A stretch of DNA of 64,000 nucleotides from Armatimonadota bacterium (GCA_034722055.1 JAYENL010000130.1:1-64000); one strand, 5' to 3'; counted from the stretch's first letter, positions 24,313 to 63,247 are shown. Program-made: numbers and translations. Notes: generated from the sequence alone by a model not told the origin.

Positions 24313-25608
24313 TCAGCGCTCATCCGACAGCCCGTGGATGCTCGCCCCCCGCTGGTGCAGCCGCAGGCGAAGCTGGTCCGCGTCCACGGCGCGCACGTCA
24401 CCCGTCGCCAGCGCCATCTGCGCCGCGCAGCCGGCCGCCTCGCCGATGGCCATTACGATGGGCATCACGCGCAGCGAGCTGTGCGCCCCGTGGTCGCACG
24501 AGACGCAGCGGGCGGCGATGAGCAGGTTCTCGAAGCCACGCGGCGTCAGGCAGCGGTACGGGATGTCGTAGGCCTCGCCCGGCGGCAGCCGCTTGATGAC
24601 CGTCCCGCTGCCCGCCGGGTTGTGGATGTCCACGCAGTACGAGCCGCGGGCGATGCCGTCATCGAAGGTGCGCGCCGCCAGCACGTCCTCGGTGGTCAGC
24701 ACGTAGTCGCCCATCACCCGCCGGCTCTCGCGCACGCCGATCTGCGGCGCGATCTCCTGCAGCCAGGCCTCCTCGAAGCCCGACACCTCCCGGGTGAGGA
24801 AGCGCACCATCTCGCGCACCTGCCGCCGCGCCTGCAGCTCCGCGTGGGTCATGTCCTCGGCGTTGGTGGGATCATGCTTCACTATCCGTGTAGTGTTGAG
24901 ATGCACCTCGTTTTCGTGCGTCGTGAAGAAAAAAAGGACGTTCTCGCGCGGGTTGTCGATCTCCCCGCGCTCCCTGGCGGCGTCGTAGAGCTCAGTGATG
25001 TCGCCGCGCGAGGGCACGCGGTCGAGGTCCACATTCACCATGCGGAAGCACAGCGTCATGGGCTGGCAGAGGCCGTCCTCCTCCCGGCCGATCTCGACCT
25101 CCGCCCCGGCCCGGGCCGCCAGATCGCCGTCGCCCGTGGCGTCGATGAACACCTCGCCCTTGACCTGCTGCAGCCCGGACTTGCTCAGCGTGGCGATCCT
25201 GCTTACTCGACCGTCGCGGGTGTCTACGTGCGCCAGCATGGTGTGCAGACGCAGCCGCACGTCCGCCTCCTCGCACAGATCATCGGCCACCAACTTGAGC
25301 AGCTCGTCGTCGAAGGCGCTGCCCTGCCGGGGGCCCGCCCAGCCGCCGTAGTCGTCGAGCCGCTCGATGATGCGCTCGAACAGCCCCCGGATGATGGGCT
25401 TGCCGCCCGCGTGCCAGGTCATGAAGGGGTTGACCAGCCCTGCTGTGGCCATCCCGCCCAGGAAGCCGTAGCGCTCGATCAGCAGCGTGTCAGCGCCCTC
25501 CTCAGCGGCGGCCACCGCCGCGCACAATCCACCCGGCCCACCGCCCACCACCACGACCTCGGCCTCCGCTGCCACCTCAAGGGCGTCGAAGCTCACGGCG
25601 TCGCTCAT
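24313..25608 (-). CDS. FAD-dependent oxidoreductase
   Basis: VVVGGGPGG, LGGMATAG, IDATGDGD, GVRESRR, IPYRCL. Confidence 0.9.
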   Translation of the reverse strand: MSDAVSFDALEVAAEAEVVVVGGGPGGLCAAVAAAEEGADTLLIERYGFLGGMATAGLVNPFMTWHAGGKPIIRGLFERIIERLDDYGGWAGPRQGSAFDDELLKLVADDLCEEADVRLRLHTMLAHVDTRDGRVSRIATLSKSGLQQVKGEVFIDATGDGDLAARAGAEVEIGREEDGLCQPMTLCFRMVNVDLDRVPSRGDITELYDAARERGEIDNPRENVLFFFTTHENEVHLNTTRIVKHDPTNAEDMTHAELQARRQVREMVRFLTREVSGFEEAWLQEIAPQIGVRESRRVMGDYVLTTEDVLAARTFDDGIARGSYCVDIHNPAGSGTVIKRLPPGEAYDIPYRCLTPRGFENLLIAARCVSCDHGAHSSLRVMPIVMAIGEAAGCAAQMALATGDVRAVDADQLRLRLHQRGASIHGLSDER

Positions 25609-25955
25609 GTCTGGGGCTCCTCGCATTCGAGATCAACGTGAATGCGTATTCCGCGCTCTGCCGCCTCGCGTGCCAGCGAGTTCCACTCCTGCATCTCCTC
25701 GAAGTGCTGAGGCGTGCAGGGCAGCAGCTCGAGCTGCAGGTCCAGCTTCCACTCCCGCTGCAGCTCCGGGAGCAGCTTGCCCAGCGGGCGCCCCTCGAAG
25801 CTCTCGGAGAGCAGCACCAGGTTCAGGTCCGAGTGCGGGCGCTCGTCCCCGCGCGCCCGTGAGCCGAAGAAGATGGCGTCCTCCACACCCACCCGGCGCA
25901 GGAACCGCCGAATCTCCTCGATCAGCTCTTCGCGTTGTACTGTGTCTCGATCCAC
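25605..25955 (-). CDS. Minimal nucleotidyltransferase (MNT), second Asp replaced by Asn
   Basis: FFGSRARGDERPHSDLN (GSx10DxN). Confidence 0.8.
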   Translation of the reverse strand: MDRDTVQREELIEEIRRFLRRVGVEDAIFFGSRARGDERPHSDLNLVLLSESFEGRPLGKLLPELQREWKLDLQLELLPCTPQHFEEMQEWNSLAREAAERGIRIHVDLECEEPQT

Positions 25956-26320
25956 TCGAAGGCCTCCTGAGCCATCGCCACGGCCTCGCGCGCATCCTCG
26001 GGCTCGAAGCGCTCCGAGGGCGGCCCGCCGGCGGCGTCCACGTAGCGGGTGGACATGTAGAAGGGGTTCAGCCTCTTAATGATTGCCCACATGTCGTCGG
26101 GTATCCTGCCGAACACGTCGTGAACCATCGCCTGCAGGGAGTGCTCGTGGGGCATGGGGCGGTCCTTGAGGATGGGGTAGCCGCACTTGAGGAGCTTCTC
26201 AACGGCCTGCCGGGCGTGGAAGATGGCGTGGCTGGGGATGTCGTGCCGGGAGAGCAGCCGGGCCGCCTCCAGGTCGATCCGCGCATCGGCGATCCACGAC
26301 CGCTCCCGCTCGGAGAGCAT
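25922..26320 (-). CDS. HEPN domain protein (RY type)
   Basis: AIFHARQAVEKLLK, HSL, YMSTRY; overlaps MNT gene. Confidence 0.82.
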   Translation of the reverse strand: MLSERERSWIADARIDLEAARLLSRHDIPSHAIFHARQAVEKLLKCGYPILKDRPMPHEHSLQAMVHDVFGRIPDDMWAIIKRLNPFYMSTRYVDAAGGPPSERFEPEDAREAVAMAQEAFEWIETQYNAKS

Positions 26321-26323
26321 CCC

Positions 26324-27411
26324 TCACGCGTCCTCGCCGGCTCCACCGACCGCTTCCCCGCCGCTCGCGCAGCCGGGCTTCCGCCGTGTCATCGACAGCC
26401 CGAAGGCGTCGGCCGATACCGTCGCGTCCGCCAGCGCGGTCTTCGGCAGCATCTCCTGGAGCTTCACCACCGTGTAGGCCGCTTTCAGCGAGCTGGCGAA
26501 GCCCGCCTTCAGCTCCCGGCTGGTCATCAGCTTCATGAACCAAGCGATCACCGGGTTGATGTCGCACCGCAGGTCGCCGAGGCAGTACGCACCGCCCGGC
26601 TTGAGCCCCCGCGCGATCTCGTCGAAGACGCGCTCCGGCTCGGCCCACTCATGCGGCGACCCGTTGCTGAACGCGCCATCGAAGGTGGCGTCCTCGAAGG
26701 GCATCGCCAGGGCATTCCCCTCCATGAACTCGGCGCGCTTAGTGATCCCGTACTCCTGGGCGTTGCGCTGCGCGACGGCGATCATCGCCGGGCTGATCTC
26801 CAAACCGTGCAGACGCGTCCCGTCCGTCGCCTTCAGCCACTCCAGGCCCAGGTAGCCCGGCCCGGGGCCGACCTCCAGCACGAGGCTCGAATCTACGCCC
26901 GCGCCGATGGTCTCCCGGGTGTGCATTAGCCCCCGGTCACGCATGCTGCGCTGGAAGCGGTCTGCCCTCGTCGGTCTCCACTAGTGCTCACTTCCGCAAT
27001 TCCGCGTACCTTGACGACGGGCACAGTCGGCGCTCGGTTGCCTCAAAAACCCACCGGCTCCGGTGGAGGGGCCGCCGGGCGCGCAGCGCCCGGTGAGGCC
27101 TGTGACTGAGACTTCGTAGAAGTCTCCCAGCGAATAGGCCTCAGGTTCCACCCCGGCCCGGTGGATAGCTCTACCCAGGGGCTGAACGGCGCGCAGGCGG
27201 GGGCGCCCGCGCTGATGGTCGGGCTGGAAGCCCGTGAGACCGAAGGTCTCCAGTGGGCCGGGGTGGAACCTGCGCGGTCAGTCGCTACCGCTCCTGATCG
27301 CGCCCCGCTCGCTTCGCTCGCGGCGGCCCCTCCATGGCGGGCACGCCTCTTGTCGGGACGTAGGAAGCTACGCGAACTTCTGCGACTTAGCACTAAACGC
27401 GGCTTGATCAT
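26324..27411 (-). pseudogene. Class I SAM-dependent methyltransferase, split by MITE and frameshifted
   Basis: LEVGPGPG, GNALAMPFED, LKPGG in 26324-26944; RBS plus MIKPRL at 27411-27394 lies beyond the element. Confidence 0.78.
26984..27393 (+). mobile_element. MITE-like structured repeat, copy 2 (complete, 410 bp)
   Basis: Imperfect terminal inverted repeats GTGCTCACTTCCGCAATTCCGCGTA / TACGCGAACTTCTGCGACTTAGCAC; TA at 26982-83 and 27394-95; no coding capacity. Confidence 0.85.
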
Positions 27412-27455
27412 CGCTACGCCTCCCCGCTGTGAGTGTCACATCGCCGCCTATGCCT

Positions 27456-28319
27456 TCAGCCGTCATCGTCAGAGGTGTCCTCGTCGCCCGGCTCGTCATC
27501 GAGACCGGCGTCCTCAGGGACGTCGCCCGCAGTTGGCAGCCCGCTCTCAGGCAGCTGCTCGCCCACCCATTCGAGGACGCTCTCCATCGCCACGAGCGCG
27601 CTCTCCGCGTCAAGCTCGTTGTAGTATGTCGTCGGCGACGGAATGACCTCCGTTGGGTACCGGGTCAGGATGTAGTACGCCTCAAGCTCCCTGAGTGGGC
27701 CCTTGACCTCGCCTGGGACATCGCCGAACGCGGTCTCCGCCAGCTCGTGCAGCGCGTGGGTTCGAGGAGGTTCCTCAGCGCGCAGCTCGACACAGGCCGC
27801 CTTCAGGGCGGCCTCCACTGCCTGTCGCGCATGATAGATTGCCTGGCTGAAGACGTTGGCTTCACTCAGTAGCCGTGCTACCCGCCGGTTCGTGCCAGCT
27901 TCCGTCAGCCAGTTCTTTGTCTCTGGCCGCATTCTCTCACCTCCCGGCTCGGGCGGTGGCTGGTGCTCCACAATGGCGCCGTCACCGTCACCACGCAACG
28001 TGATGTGGATACCGGTCCTGGCCGCGGCTCGTTCGATGCCAAGGCCCCTTTTCGCCCGCTCGAACTCCTCGGGCGTGTAGGCGAGGACTTCCAGGAAGGG
28101 TAGCTCCGGGTCCCACTCGGAATGCAGAGGCGCGAGGCGCCGGTGAGGAGGCGTATCCGCGAACCGCGGCGAGATCACCATCAGGTCCACGTCGCTGCTC
28201 TTGATGTGATCCCCACGCGCTCGCGACCCGTAGAGGATGGCCTCAGTGACGCCGACGCGCCGCATGAACTCCTGCACGACCTCGATCAGCTCGTCTCGAG
28301 TAAGCGTCCGGACAGGCAC
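27456..28319 (-). CDS. MNT-HEPN fusion ORF (internal RBS and ATG at 27932)
   Basis: YGSRARGDHIKSSDVD then AIYHARQAVEAALKA, THAL, YILTRY in one frame. Confidence 0.8.
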   Translation of the reverse strand: MPVRTLTRDELIEVVQEFMRRVGVTEAILYGSRARGDHIKSSDVDLMVISPRFADTPPHRRLAPLHSEWDPELPFLEVLAYTPEEFERAKRGLGIERAAARTGIHITLRGDGDGAIVEHQPPPEPGGERMRPETKNWLTEAGTNRRVARLLSEANVFSQAIYHARQAVEAALKAACVELRAEEPPRTHALHELAETAFGDVPGEVKGPLRELEAYYILTRYPTEVIPSPTTYYNELDAESALVAMESVLEWVGEQLPESGLPTAGDVPEDAGLDDEPGDEDTSDDDG

Positions 28320-28362
28320 GCGAGCACCTCCCGCGCATCCTCGATGGCTCGCTGAATCACTG

Positions 28363-58782: not shown

Positions 58783-58923
58783 GCTGGCACTCCGAGCCGC
58801 TTCCGTGATCTCGCATTCGATTCTTCGGCCCACGCCAGCCGAACACCTGCATGCGGGGAGGACGCCGCGGCCGGCGACGCGAAGATGAACCTGCAGACAG
58901 CCACTCGAGGAGGTGCTCGGAGG

Positions 58924-60315
58924 ATGCTGCTCAGAGCCGCCGTCATGTTAGTCATGATCGCCGTCTGCCTGGCCGCCCACGCCCAGGCGCCGAAGCTGCT
59001 GCTGCGCGCCGCCTTCGACGGCTCGACCGATCTCGAGCCCGGCGGCGAGGGCGAGCTGGTGGCCGCCGAGTTCGCCGATGGACGCGACGGCCAGGCCATC
59101 CGCGCCACCGCCGCGGACCAGCCCGCCGCGCGCATCCCACTGGACGTCGCCAGCGCAGACGAGGGCACGCTGATGTTCTGGTTCCGCTGCGACGAGCCCA
59201 ACCCGCCCGACCGCTCGGAGCGGGTTCACTGGACGCCGGTCACCACCGGCGGCGAGCCCGGGCCGCGCATCGACGTCCACCAGATGTACCACCAGGCCCA
59301 GATCCAGGCCCGCAATCCCTGGGGGGAGGACCACTCCGGCGGCGCCCGGGCCGTCTACAGCCACCTCATCCCCGGCAAGTGGTACCACCTCGCCTACACC
59401 TGGCGGAAGGCCGGCAACGACGTCTGCTACTGGCTCTTCGGCGAGGCTCAGAGCGACACTCTCGGCAAGTGGAATGAGCTGGAACACACCGACGCCCAGT
59501 GGGCGGACACGCTCCAGGTCGGCTCCGCGCTCGGCAGCATCGACGATCTGCGCATCTACGATCGCGCCATGACCGGCGAGGAAATCCAGGCCGCCGGCGA
59601 GTACCGCGACGGGGAGGCCATGTACGATGAGGGCAAGGTCTTCTTCGACACCGTTCTCGACATCGACGCCCTGAAGGGCGAGCTGATCGCGGAGGACACT
59701 TTCGACGAGCCCTGGCAGGGAAACTGGACGCTGGAGGGACCCGGCATCCTGACGCAGGAGGACGGCCGGCTGCGCCTCCAGGAGCCCGAGCCCGGCACCG
59801 AGGGCGCCAACCACATCGTGCTGTGGAACGACACGCCGACGCCCAAGGACTTCATCGCGCAGTGGGACTTCACGCCCAATGACGTCGCCGGCCTGTGCAT
59901 CGTGTTCTTCTCCGCCAAGGGACTGGGCGGGGAGAGGATCTTCGACCCCGGACTGGAGGAGCGCGATGGGACCTTCAGCCAGTATCACTCCGGGGATATC
60001 AACTGCTACCACATCTCCTACTTCCGCAACACCTGCTCGCGCTCACCCAACACCGCCCTGCGCAAGAACAAGGGCTTCTGGCGCTGCTCCGCGGGGTATG
60101 ATTACATTCCGCTGGAGACGGGCGTGACCAGCACCATCACGCTGGTCAAGCGCGGCGCGCACATCCAGTTCGCCATCAACGATCGCGTCTCCATCGACTG
60201 GGTGGACGACGGGGTCAGCCGCGGCCCGGTCTGGGGCGGAGGGCACATCGGCCTCCGCCAGATGATGACCACCGATGGCTGGTACGACAACTTCCGCGTG
60301 TGGGCGATCAAGTAG
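58924..60315 (+). CDS. Secreted LamG-like + DUF1961 (YesU-like) protein
   Basis: GAGGAGGTG RBS, signal peptide, WYHLAYTW..IDDLRIY, GLCIVFF, YHISYFR, LRKNKG, GGHIGLRQM. Confidence 0.75.
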   Translation: MLLRAAVMLVMIAVCLAAHAQAPKLLLRAAFDGSTDLEPGGEGELVAAEFADGRDGQAIRATAADQPAARIPLDVASADEGTLMFWFRCDEPNPPDRSERVHWTPVTTGGEPGPRIDVHQMYHQAQIQARNPWGEDHSGGARAVYSHLIPGKWYHLAYTWRKAGNDVCYWLFGEAQSDTLGKWNELEHTDAQWADTLQVGSALGSIDDLRIYDRAMTGEEIQAAGEYRDGEAMYDEGKVFFDTVLDIDALKGELIAEDTFDEPWQGNWTLEGPGILTQEDGRLRLQEPEPGTEGANHIVLWNDTPTPKDFIAQWDFTPNDVAGLCIVFFSAKGLGGERIFDPGLEERDGTFSQYHSGDINCYHISYFRNTCSRSPNTALRKNKGFWRCSAGYDYIPLETGVTSTITLVKRGAHIQFAINDRVSIDWVDDGVSRGPVWGGGHIGLRQMMTTDGWYDNFRVWAIK

Positions 60316-60334
60316 CGCCGGGGAGACCAGGAAC

Positions 60335-60652
60335 ATGGACCTCGACGAGGCGCTGCGACAACTGAGGGCGGAGCTCGAGGAGCTCTACGGCGAGCGCCTC
60401 AAGGGCCTGTATCTGTTCGGCTCCCGCGCCCGCGGCGACGCCGAGCCGGACTCGGACGTGGACGTGGCCGTGGTGCTGGACGACTTCGAGTACGAGTCAG
60501 ACGAGCTCACGCGCATGGCGCCGGTGCTGAACAGGCTGTCGCTTGAATGTGACCTGGTCTTCGCTGCGGTCCCGATCCGCGCCAGCGAATGGGCAGGTGG
60601 CGGCAGCCCCCTGATGCTGAATCTCCGTCGCGAGGGAGTGCCGCTGCCATGA
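60335..60652 (+). CDS. MNT nucleotidyltransferase, array unit 1
   Basis: LFGSRARGDAEPDSDVD (GSx10DxD). Confidence 0.9.
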   Translation: MDLDEALRQLRAELEELYGERLKGLYLFGSRARGDAEPDSDVDVAVVLDDFEYESDELTRMAPVLNRLSLECDLVFAAVPIRASEWAGGGSPLMLNLRREGVPLP

Positions 60653-61038
60653 CCGAGGAGATGCGCGTACTGCTGGCCGACGCAAGGCGGAATGCGTCGG
60701 CCGCACGTGACTTGCTGGATCGGGGAGACTCGGACGACATCGCGGCCTCTCGAGCCTACTACGCCATGTTCTACGTCGCTGAGGCCGCCCTGCTCAGCCT
60801 CGACCTGTCCTACAGCAAGCACCAGGCCGTGGTGTCGGCGTTCGGCAGGGAGTTCGCCAAGGGCGGGATACTCCCCCGGGAGCTTCACGGCCACCTTCGG
60901 GAAGCGTTTGGGCTGCGCCAGACGGCCGACTACGCCACGGGGGCGAGCGTGTCCCGCGCTGCTGCGGAGGAAGTCGTTGACCGCGCCGAGCAGTTCATCG
61001 ACGCCATCGAGGATTACCTGCGGCAGCAGACAGAGTAG
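60649..61038 (+). CDS. HEPN domain protein (Rx4Y), array unit 1
   Basis: SRAYYAMF, SKH, RQTADY; 4-nt overlap with MNT. Confidence 0.9.
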   Translation: MTEEMRVLLADARRNASAARDLLDRGDSDDIAASRAYYAMFYVAEAALLSLDLSYSKHQAVVSAFGREFAKGGILPRELHGHLREAFGLRQTADYATGASVSRAAAEEVVDRAEQFIDAIEDYLRQQTE

Positions 61039-61230
61039 CTCGGAACCTCGCGCTCCAGGCCGGTTGGTGAGGTAGATGGACCTTCACGAGGCGCTGCGAC
61101 AACTGAGGGCGGAGCTTGAGGAGCTCTACGGTGAGCGCCTCAAGGGTCTGTATCTGTTCGGCTCCCGCGCCCGCGGCGACGCCGAGCCGGACTCGGACGT
61201 GGACGTGGCCGTGGTGCTGGACGACTTCGA
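60985..61230 (+). repeat. Conserved ~246-bp junction block, copy A
   Basis: About 16 mismatches to 61723-61968; partial copies at 60335-60489 and 62461-62497. Confidence 0.9.
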
Positions 61231-61393
61231 CTCGGCATTCGAGGAGATCGACCGGATGGCTGAGGTCGGGACCCGGATCTCGCTGGCGGCGGATCTCGCT
61301 ATCACCAAGATACCTCTCACCGAGGCCCAGTGGCGAGATAAGCAGACGGCGTTCCTGCGCAACGCCCGCCGGGAGGCGGTGAGCATCGAGTGA
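61076..61393 (+). CDS. MNT nucleotidyltransferase, array unit 2
   Basis: Same GSx10DxD motif, 105 aa. Confidence 0.9.
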   Translation: MDLHEALRQLRAELEELYGERLKGLYLFGSRARGDAEPDSDVDVAVVLDDFDSAFEEIDRMAEVGTRISLAADLAITKIPLTEAQWRDKQTAFLRNARREAVSIE

Positions 61394-61776
61394 ATGAAGA
61401 GCAGGCGGCAATGGTGGGAAGGGCACGCAGCGCACTCAGGCTGGCGCGTGTCGCCCTGCGCGAGGATGAGGCGAATGCCGCCGCATCGCAGGCGTACTAC
61501 GCCATGTTCCACGCGGCCAATGCTGCCCTGGCATCACTGGGTCTTGGCTTCTCGAAGCACTCGGCGGTCCAGAGCGCCTTCGGTCGCGAATTCGCCAAGA
61601 CTGGCCGCCTGCCCCGGCAACTGCATCGCTGGCTGATCTCCGCCTTCGAGAAGCGGGTCATAGCAAACTACGACTACACGTCGCATGTCGAGGACGAAGA
61701 GGCGAGCGAAGTCGTCGAGCAGGCCGAGCAGTTCATCGCCGCCATCGAGGATTACCTGCGGGAGCAGACAGAGTAG
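61390..61776 (+). CDS. HEPN domain protein (Rx4Y), array unit 2
   Basis: AYYAMF, SKH, RVIANY. Confidence 0.9.
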   Translation: MNEEQAAMVGRARSALRLARVALREDEANAAASQAYYAMFHAANAALASLGLGFSKHSAVQSAFGREFAKTGRLPRQLHRWLISAFEKRVIANYDYTSHVEDEEASEVVEQAEQFIAAIEDYLREQTE

Positions 61777-61968
61777 CTCGGACCCTCGTGCTCCAGGCCG
61801 GTCGGTGAGGTACATGGACCTTGACGAGGCGCTGCGACAACTGAGGGCGGAGCTCGAGGAGCTCTACGGCGAACGCCTCAGAGGCCTGTATCTGTTCGGC
61901 TCCCGCGCACGCGGCGACGCCGAGCCGGACTCGGACGTGGACGTGGCGGTTGTGCTGGACGACTTCGA
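61723..61968 (+). repeat. Conserved ~246-bp junction block, copy B
   Basis: Offset 738 bp from copy A. Confidence 0.9.
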
Positions 61969-62131
61969 GTCGGTCTACACGGAGATCAGGCGCATGTCGG
62001 AGGTCGGCGCCCGGACATCTCTCGATCTCGACCTGCACGTTAGCCTCATCCCGGTGCGTGAGGCCGACTGGCGTGAAGGGACGAGTATATTCCTCCGCAA
62101 CGTCGCTCGGGAAGGAGTCTCGGTCCATTGA
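61814..62131 (+). CDS. MNT nucleotidyltransferase, array unit 3
   Basis: Same GSx10DxD motif, 105 aa. Confidence 0.9.
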   Translation: MDLDEALRQLRAELEELYGERLRGLYLFGSRARGDAEPDSDVDVAVVLDDFESVYTEIRRMSEVGARTSLDLDLHVSLIPVREADWREGTSIFLRNVAREGVSVH

Positions 62132-62508
62132 ACCCCGAGGTGCGCGGCAAGCTTGATCGCGCTGGATCATCATTGGAGGCGGCGCGCGTCCTGGCGGCTG
62201 AGGATCTGGCCAACCAGGCGGCTGCCGAGGCGTATTACGCGATGTTCCACGCCGCGACCGCGGCCCTGGCCGCACGTGACCAAAGCTACTCCAAGCACTC
62301 AGCGGTGATAAGCGCCTTCGGCCGCGAGTTCGCGAAGACCGGCGAACTGCCGGCGGAACTGCACCGGCGACTCCGGGAGGCCTTTGAGACCCGCCTCTCG
62401 GCGACGTATGACTACACCCACCAAGTGACCGTTGCCGAGGCCGTCGCTCTCTGCGACGAGGCCGAGCAGTTCATCGCCGCCATCGAGCACTACCTGCAGC
62501 GGCGATAG
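62128..62508 (+). CDS. HEPN domain protein (Rx4Y), array unit 3
   Basis: AYYAMF, SKH, RLSATY. Confidence 0.9.
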   Translation: MNPEVRGKLDRAGSSLEAARVLAAEDLANQAAAEAYYAMFHAATAALAARDQSYSKHSAVISAFGREFAKTGELPAELHRRLREAFETRLSATYDYTHQVTVAEAVALCDEAEQFIAAIEHYLQRR

Positions 62509-62511
62509 CCA

Positions 62512-62952
62512 TCATGACTGCGCCTGGGAGGGAACGTCCTCTTCGCGCTTGAGCCCAGGGACGGAAGAGAGCTTGCGGTCGAAGGAGTAGAGCCGCCCCT
62601 CGCACTCCTCCAGCGCTGCCGCACAGGCGCAGGCGTCTCCGAAGTGCTTCACCGTGTCCCTGAAGAGCCGCAAGGCGCGCAAATACCGCGGCGTATCGGT
62701 CATCAAGAAGCCATCGGTCTGGAGAAGGGGAATGAGCCCGTCGCTGATTTCCTCGTTGGGCAGTTCGTAATAGGAGGAGGGCACGTAGACTACCTCAGCA
62801 AGCGTCACAGGGTCGCAGACTACTGCAGCCTTCCCCCGCTGCGCGCTGCGGAGAATCGTGGCCGCCTTGGCTGCCAGGGCTTCCTCGTCTCGCAGCAGGA
62901 AGCGCAGAATCACGTTGGCGTCGATTACCCACAGTTCCCGCGTGTTACTCAT
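62512..62952 (-). CDS. PIN domain (VapC-like) toxin
   Basis: IDANVILRFL, LAEV, FGDA, YSFDRK. Confidence 0.88.
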   Translation of the reverse strand: MSNTRELWVIDANVILRFLLRDEEALAAKAATILRSAQRGKAAVVCDPVTLAEVVYVPSSYYELPNEEISDGLIPLLQTDGFLMTDTPRYLRALRLFRDTVKHFGDACACAAALEECEGRLYSFDRKLSSVPGLKREEDVPSQAQS

Positions 62953-63196
62953 CCGCCACCTGCTTGGCTACAGCTTCCTGCGCCTCACGCCGGACGGTGT
63001 CCCACTCGGCATCCCTGCCCTGCGCGTACTCGTGGAAGATCCCGAACAGCTCGTCAACCGATCTGAGAGGCCACAGCACTGCCTCATCCTCGCGGGCCTC
63101 CAGTGCCAACTCGTCCCCGGGCTGTATACCCAGCTTCCGACGAACATCGGCAGGTATCGTGATGCGGCCCTGTTCCGAGACCCTGACCTTTGTCAT
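62945..63196 (-). CDS. AbrB/MazE-family antitoxin
   Basis: AGGAGG RBS; SEQGRITIPADVRRKLGIQPGD. Confidence 0.9.
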   Translation of the reverse strand: MTKVRVSEQGRITIPADVRRKLGIQPGDELALEAREDEAVLWPLRSVDELFGIFHEYAQGRDAEWDTVRREAQEAVAKQVADE

Positions 63197-63218
63197 GTCG
63201 GCGTACCTCCTGCTCTCC

Positions 63219-63247
63219 ATCTTACCCATGTTCCCAGGACCGCACAA
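63219..63247 (-). promoter_or_regulatory. Putative promoter of the AbrB-PIN operon
   Basis: TTGTGC-N17-TAAGAT; CCCATG/CATGGG inverted pair overlapping it. Confidence 0.45.

Follow-up and report, generated by a model that had tools for sequence, protein, structure and literature searches.

Pairs of a minimal nucleotidyltransferase (MNT) and a HEPN protein are among the most abundant toxin-antitoxin families. The subject of this report is a tandem array of three such pairs, on the plus strand at positions 60335..62508 of a 64,000-nucleotide stretch of an Armatimonadota bacterium (JAYENL010000130.1:1-64000, GCA_034722055.1); the whole stretch is referred to below as the window. Class I systems, the type VII HepT/MntA pairs of Shewanella, Aphanizomenon, and Legionella, share with the array the MNT fold and the GSx10DxD motif, whereas their HEPN family, RX4HXY motif, and long C-terminal helix α4 are absent from it. 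The three solved class I pairs in the accessible part of PMC11586414 all bind via MNT helix α2, which is also the main HEPN contact in our model. Class II HEPN/MNT (structures 9XBD and 9XBC) is alike in Pfam families, GSx10DxD, lack of RX4HXY, a tyrosine after the arginine, and an upstream histidine. Class II is described in the available text of PMC7641770 as single two-gene units, whereas the array is a tandem mosaic in which the outer ends of the modules and their variable cores have different histories.

The initial annotation had placed three MNT-HEPN units at 741- and 738-bp spacing with conserved length, frame, and a 4-nt MNT/HEPN overlap, and the open reading frame coordinates bear this out. 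The pairs lie head to tail with 37-nt spacers between units. The MNT genes start at 60335, 61076, and 61814 and each encodes 105 amino acids (MNT1, 60335..60652; MNT2, 61076..61393; MNT3, 61814..62131), and the HEPN genes encode 129, 128, and 126 (HEPN1, 60649..61038; HEPN2, 61390..61776; HEPN3, 62128..62508). The units carry cores of type 1, 2, and 3, respectively. MNT1-3 match PF01909 (49-53 bits, cut-off 21) and PF18765, with G29-S30...D41-x-D43 invariant in 20/20 aligned sequences. HEPN1-3 match PF05168 only (51-60 bits, cut-off 22) and not the class I families PF01934 and PF08780; H57, R89, and Y94 are invariant in 16/16 aligned, the motif reading R-x4-Y with RX4HXY absent. MNT1, the only MNT scanned against the NCBIfam MntA equivalog, reached 43 bits against a cut-off of 60. 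On these features the modules are assigned to class II HEPN/MNT, not to class I HepT/MntA. Yao et al. (PMC7641770), as far as its text is available, defines class II by PF05168, no RX4HXY, and a retained tyrosine, and gives no biochemical study of it; according to the portion available of PMC3710099, the upstream histidine may form an alternative active site in PF05168-type HEPNs. The statement in the annotation that MNTs of this class are established to nucleotidylate their HEPN is therefore unsupported in that form, since the array HEPNs are class II and it holds for class I only.

The conserved stretch had been described as a junction of ~246 bp with about 16 mismatches between copies, running from the HEPN tail through the 37-nt spacer into MNT codons 1-51. 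Junction blocks 1 (60984..61229) and 2 (61722..61967) do differ at 17/246 bases (16 when the start is shifted one base in), but there are only two full copies of the block. In unit 1 sharing is confined to the MNT N-half, and the HEPN tail of unit 3 shares no more than about 39 nt, with 2 mismatches to unit 2. Two further statements, that MNT residues 1-51 including GSx10DxD are nearly identical and that identity drops abruptly thereafter, stand as made. Across the three unit pairs, identity is 50, 50, and 49 of 51 over residues 1-51 and 17, 20, and 27 of 54 over residues 52-105, and the maximum chi-square breakpoint falls at codons 52-53 in every pair, a value matched by 0/1000 codon permutations each. 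The suggested check on synonymous divergence reveals the same split. At four-fold sites 4/29, 4/29, and 6/29 differ in the MNT N-half, as against 8/10, 7/11, and 9/15 in the C-half and 22/33, 22/31, and 24/36 in HEPN residues 1-111, or about two thirds; the ~490-bp cores are synonymously saturated.

Unit 3 has a true orthologue in a related genome, G001 (the genome carrying the array is G000 and its array locus C130; other G and L codes denote genomes and metagenome loci of relatives). The two differ at 14/153 positions in the N-half, 14/159 in the C-half, 16/240 in the HEPN, and 40/600 in the adjoining LamG/DUF1961 gene (58885..60315, plus strand; PF09224, PF13385), which throughout the family serves as a fixed anchor on the upstream side of the locus. 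Because true orthologues diverge evenly across the segments, protein constraint alone fails, and it is ruled out by this together with the four-fold sites; recombination maintains the likeness of the shared block, as had been proposed. The annotation had argued that a plain duplication should decay more evenly than this; the orthologue pair does diverge evenly, and the array units do not.

The two parts of the MNT gene have separate genealogies. The N-halves are 93-98% alike within G000, G010, G013, and G015 and 76-91% alike between genera (65-80% for a divergent G008 copy), the between-genus divergence resembling that of the anchor gene. The cores are 60-68% alike within type 1 across genera versus 49-59% between units of one genome. 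Approximately unbiased (AU) tests, run without the long branch L041, rejected for the N-half a type-1 clade (p-AU 4.5e-6) and a type-3 clade (p 0.005), and for the core the by-genome clades G000+G001 (p 1.6e-4), G010 (p 0.002), and G015 (p 5e-83). Two sets of values were excluded from the analysis: N-half comparisons of G000 with G005 at the C179 locus, which were out of register, and counts over HEPN residues 1-80 that involve type 1 or G003, which were unaligned. Pairwise identities of the MNT C-half and of the HEPN are correlated (r=0.88; 78 non-independent pairs from 13 units), and the two trees show no supported conflict. The annotation had viewed the C-half and its HEPN as a co-evolving specificity cassette. 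Co-inheritance is supported by these results, but the constant element would be α2 rather than the whole C-half because arrays with the opposite gene order share the MNT C-terminus.

A scan of G000 returned 35 near-identical direct repeats of at least 80 nt within 3 kb, six of them (6/35 rows) being MNT N-halves at four loci: C130, C179, C324, and C239. In MNT-first tandems the stretch from the start to seven residues past DxD is 89-99% identical in 11/13 comparisons, and the next 23 codons, which encode α2, are 42-71% identical. HEPN-first tandems mirror this in 5/5 cases: the last ~21-31 MNT codons are 90-98% identical, the catalytic N-terminal part 53-69%, and the 23 α2 codons 45-58%. The comparison table drew on 6/14 fetched family regions. 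The split is also seen outside the family, including another phylum (L063, L070, G262:C4). At G000:C239:11345-12658, where both PF01934 genes of the genome sit, a class I MNT-HepT tandem with RX4HXY present has MNT N-halves 99% identical and a divergent α2; the mosaic thus extends to the class whose biochemistry is known. Same-strand HEPN hits within 1 kb number 38/93 in the family (11/18 genomes), 7/55 in a Hydrogenedentes-order sample, and 0/23 and 0/67 in cyanobacterial-class and Anaerolineales-order samples (the last three counted by eye); in all these counts kin are non-independent, and fragmented assemblies break at such repeats. MNT3 is matched at E<=1e-18 in 3/151 genomes of a phylum sample. 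Tandems are lineage-enriched, not universal.

The DUF1961 anchor has an orthologue in 13/18 family genomes including G000 and, at 73-85% identity, in 6/10 metagenome loci. Array content and order downstream of it are not fixed across relatives, a point on which the annotation could have failed, and the variation in copy number and order is seen between species and genera. The order is 1-2-3 in G000, 2-1 in G015, and 1-2 in L035, where the second HEPN is missing. G001 carries type 3 with a broken HEPN, followed by a homologous junction and an MNT stub; G003 has type 2 with the HEPN frameshifted; G007 has type 4; G013 has types 5-4 with the first HEPN missing; and G010 has types 1 and 3 on two contigs. 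Only an MNT is found in L033 and L034, and stubs in G012 and G016; G017 and L037 are cut off by contig ends, and no module was seen 3′ of the anchor in G009, G014, or L036. G008 and L041 carry a type in which an HTH_17 domain precedes the MNT in one fused protein (L041:292-834; the domain was tested on L041 and named by eye in G008 and L037), possibly an autoregulated form. The site 3′ of DUF1961 is best explained as a chromosomal hotspot for class II MNT-HEPN modules. A further accessory item of this hotspot is an AbrB/MazE-type and PIN toxin-antitoxin pair (62512..63220, minus strand; PF04014, PF01850), convergent to the array, present in G007 and G010 and absent in G001. At this locus six units have a broken or missing HEPN next to an intact MNT (G001, G003, the first unit of G013, L033, L034, and the second unit of L035), as against one opposite case, an imbalance that is expected if the HEPN is the toxin.

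The junctions between units differ in make-up from lineage to lineage. In G015 the junction is a copy of that genome's own upstream spacer, in L035 the final ~15 DUF1961 codons recur before the second MNT, the G000:C179 junction repeats the start of the downstream gene, and G009:C499 has a 164-nt repeat around a unit type that G003 carries alone at that site. Such scars of duplicated ends fit repeated stacking by host recombination, followed by conversion and by deletion between repeats. The junction had been interpreted as a recombination handle. It is kept alike by recombination, but its make-up is lineage-specific and often consists of duplicated ends of neighboring genes, so that no single conserved handle emerges; by its sequence it is a matter of lineage-specific homology, not a dedicated site. 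Elsewhere in G000 (C278:49145-50200; names by eye) a DUF433/PIN-like two-gene pair is flanked by a 186-nt copy, at 97% identity, of the 3′-end of an Obg-like GTPase gene, a stacking scar of the same kind at a different toxin-antitoxin family. Transposase-like reading frames (Y1/RAYT by eye) lie between direct repeats of 83-118 nt at C256:59715-60544 and C193:22657-23670.

The position of the break was compared with a structural model of MNT3 (predicted local distance difference test score, pLDDT, 94.5), in which α2 comprises residues 54-72 (about 61973-62029). The break falls right before this helix, which opens the swapped segment and is the sole MNT element variable in both gene orders. For MNT3 complexed with a HEPN3 dimer the prediction reached a score of 0.77, the best control 0.02 (the mark applied is reached by 116/157 solved and 2/215 mismatched pairs), with at least 94% contact agreement between runs and a partner pLDDT of at least 87. 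The structure prediction that had been called for places the interface in the variable part: 26/29 contacting MNT residues lie at 53-96, the others being 29, 39, and 41 at the active site. The HEPN 90-98 loop contacts the MNT in the model, and the shared HEPN tail (from 112) is not among the contacts. As like complexes have already been solved, the model demonstrates likeness rather than binding or specificity. 9XBD, a HEPN+MNT structure, is the best sequence match to both proteins (E 1.4e-19 and 2.3e-9), and with 9XBC it is the closest solved sequence to HEPN2; the literature search returned no paper on it. 9XBC has phenylalanine where 9XBD has the tyrosine that aligns with R-x4-Y, presumably an engineered acceptor mutant. 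The best Foldseek hits of the MNT fold are 8XEO, 7BXO, and 8XEH. In PADLOC the MNTs match PDC-S09 (E to 3e-31) and the HEPNs weakly match PDC-M05B; these are candidates only, and the accessible text of PMC12988326 leaves the antiviral role of PDC-M05 unconfirmed. The closest relatives in database records are Armatimonadota, several of them Ca. Zipacnadia. Taken with the model, the arrays suggest helix α2 as the specificity element.

Taken as a whole, and with AMPylation included, the data are in our judgment probably best explained by host recombination that stacks and trims co-inherited α2+HEPN specificity cores. Each MNT, with GSx10DxD in its shared N-half, would dock on its own HEPN dimer, mainly via α2 onwards, and would probably nucleotidylate the tyrosine of the R-x4-Y loop, silencing a HEPN-T RNase or toxin; toxicity and cognate specificity are presumed here along with AMPylation. 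Ordinary host homologous recombination would act at the outer ends, where modules remain alike, converting these to resident sequence, stacking alternative alleles head to tail, and deleting units between repeats. Crossovers outside the core would be harmless. Within it, low homology would make them infrequent, and any that did occur would join a HEPN to an α2 not its own; cores would therefore travel intact. Stacking from incoming DNA and unequal crossover between sister chromosomes are indistinguishable here, and any choice between them is one that we infer. A more tentative extension, which we think rather less probable than its contrary, is that the outer MNT arm serves as a recombinase-free capture handle with which cells acquire the α2+HEPN cores of relatives living alongside them and accumulate these at fixed sites. 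In a search for a mobile vector, the HEPN alignment gave 10 pattern matches and 0 confirmed relatives among viral contigs, and the plasmid matches were 10 records from cyanobacteria, 36-46% identical. Both ComEC and DprA occur, but as they are also found in 10-11/14 controls they are no evidence of transformation.

The principal alternative, which we regard as unlikely though deserving serious attention, is neutral concerted evolution: an old array would have been converted wherever its copies were alike, the cores would have escaped by divergence, and the pairs would cross-react or be non-toxic, with specificity unselected. Several observations weigh against recombination of selected cores, and some of them favor this alternative directly. 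Within-type core trees fit vertical descent and agree with host relationships, which implies old types and leaves horizontal capture conjectural; several are best explained, on their trees, as older than the genera of the family. Linkage and low homology could by themselves keep cores together, and unequal crossover with deletion is able to permute their order. G008 is the single locus retaining an intact HEPN beside a frameshifted MNT. Tandem prepilin-like genes of G000 (C57, C95, C319; named by eye) also have near-identical 5′-ends, and end-homogenization is accordingly not particular to MNT-HEPN. The other 8/14 family regions have no block of at least 45 nt above 78%, and G000:C323 (54%) and G203:C363 (57%) have no shared block. 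The HEPN-first C-terminus groups only weakly by genome, with 91% identity within G000 versus 84-89% outside and, in G005, 88% within versus up to 96% outside. The type groups of the topology tests were named beforehand from identity tables of the same data. Resemblance to MNT-HEPN structures already solved may be what produces the complex score, and since that tool passes close cousins as well, the score does not speak to specificity. Finally, AMPylation or toxicity of class II was not found in the literature, in a search that most subscription journals and supplements lay outside.

Neutral conversion, for its part, does not readily account for HEPN-first arrays, which homogenize the C-terminus and not the catalytic, most constrained N-half, nor for a tract that ends in both gene orders at α2, the predicted and, in class I, known interface. 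The junctions are lineage-specific with duplicated flanking-gene ends, and HEPN loss exceeds MNT loss by 6 to 1.

That the array is an artefact of assembly, with alleles of separate strains chained via the repeat or repeats equalized by the assembler, is in our estimate very improbable. It was examined in contigs, not long reads, from four runs (X1-X4) of one study that possibly includes the source sample. In all four, independent contigs contain the three cores at depth near that of the flanks (in X1, about 18.7/18.4/16.5 for cores and 16.8/16.5 for flanks), and the copy-specific stretches 61087-61170 and 61723-61852 were recovered. The independent contigs break at the shared blocks, where contigs of G010 and G017 also end, so the check raised by the annotation is answered in part: the cores are there, but no single piece crosses the array, and the order of the units is bridged only in part. 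Against the artefact stand also the 17 sites that distinguish the two blocks and similar arrays in the separate assemblies G015, G013, L035, L063, L070, and G262. One joint in X2 omits 761 nt (depth 2.88, 21-nt side), too weak a signal and probably from another organism, and the depth of core 2 in that run (66 versus about 46-48) is not read as copy number. At position 60873 in HEPN1 (codon 75, a run of five C) a 1-nt deletion in X2 and X3 contigs, intact in X1 and X4, is a segregating frameshift. An X3 contig over 60243-60430 (DUF1961 end and MNT start) has 16 differences and a different upstream spacer; it represents a relative that co-occurs and carries this locus, and that could serve as a recombination partner.

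An integron-like system, in which a site-specific recombinase would move cores at a defined junction site, likewise has little to recommend it. Unit length is regular, order and number vary, and the spacers can form hairpins of -13.1 and -9.9 kcal/mol (without shuffle control). However, no recombinase or transposase family was detected in the five flanking proteins scanned, a whole-genome integrase search not having been made; the spacer is not conserved among G000, G015, L035, and G013; the breakpoints lie within coding sequence and are mirrored with gene order; and unrelated MNT subfamilies of both classes exhibit the same pattern on different DNA. Least credible of all is simple duplication in tandem, the catalytic half being held by purifying selection while the cores change fast. 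Across the family, conservation is indeed highest in the MNT N-half, but the split at synonymous sites, read with the orthologue control, already contradicts this explanation: orthologues diverge evenly, cores cluster by type across genera, and copies also have non-coding spacer in common.

Scans of 60200-62600 revealed no sigma-70-like promoter and one terminator-like site, the same as in shuffles, both scans being uninformative at 68% GC. As to expression, no RNA run was listed as containing the sequence. Elsewhere in the window, 3′ of a gatB-like gene (named by eye), a minus-strand cluster at 25605-28320 comprises an MNT-HEPN pair, a methyltransferase, and a HEPN-MNT pair whose MNT has DxN instead of DxD; at 72% over 89 nt it is too diverged for a shared block. 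The content of this site also differs among relatives.

A parallel in evolutionary behavior comes from type VII secretion. Garrett et al. (PMC9484751), in the text available, describe non-identical esaG/tipC tandem paralogues in which homologous recombination, acting between conserved blocks on either side of a variable partner-binding surface, adds, removes, and reshuffles copies. The array likewise has conserved blocks around a variable region, incongruent histories, and varying copy number and order. By comparison, esaG/tipC are single immunity genes against secreted toxins, whereas the unit here spans a gene boundary and joins one half of an enzyme antitoxin to its toxin; its types are retained from genus to genus, and which MNT end is shared depends on gene order. 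Recombination-driven hotspots of horizontal gene transfer, as portrayed in the accessible part of Oliveira et al. (PMC5635113), occupy fixed sites between conserved genes and turn over rapidly with no recognizable mobile element. The array shares the fixed site, the turnover, and the lack of a recognized mobile element, but unlike those hotspots its homology arm enters the accessory gene, and alleles are stacked, not merely replaced. Mosaic MNT-HEPN arrays are undescribed in the literature found by the same search, including the available text of PMC2701414, PMC13000451, and PMC12988326.

These arrays bear on how, among many paralogues, the cognate toxin is recognized by an enzyme antitoxin. 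They constitute a natural swap experiment in which the catalytic half is constant and α2 and the HEPN core vary, the HEPN-first arrays being the reciprocal swap; the three pairs offer a small 3x3 panel for recognition tests, and class II function is directly testable. They also point to a route by which toxin-antitoxin modules can expand in number and be replaced at set positions in the chromosome, no mobile element having been seen alongside. Should the outer arm prove to be a capture handle, cells would possess a heritable, expandable repertoire of enzyme-antitoxin specificities, for anti-addiction or defence, and the breakpoint rule would map the specificity helix across the MNT superfamily, class II included.

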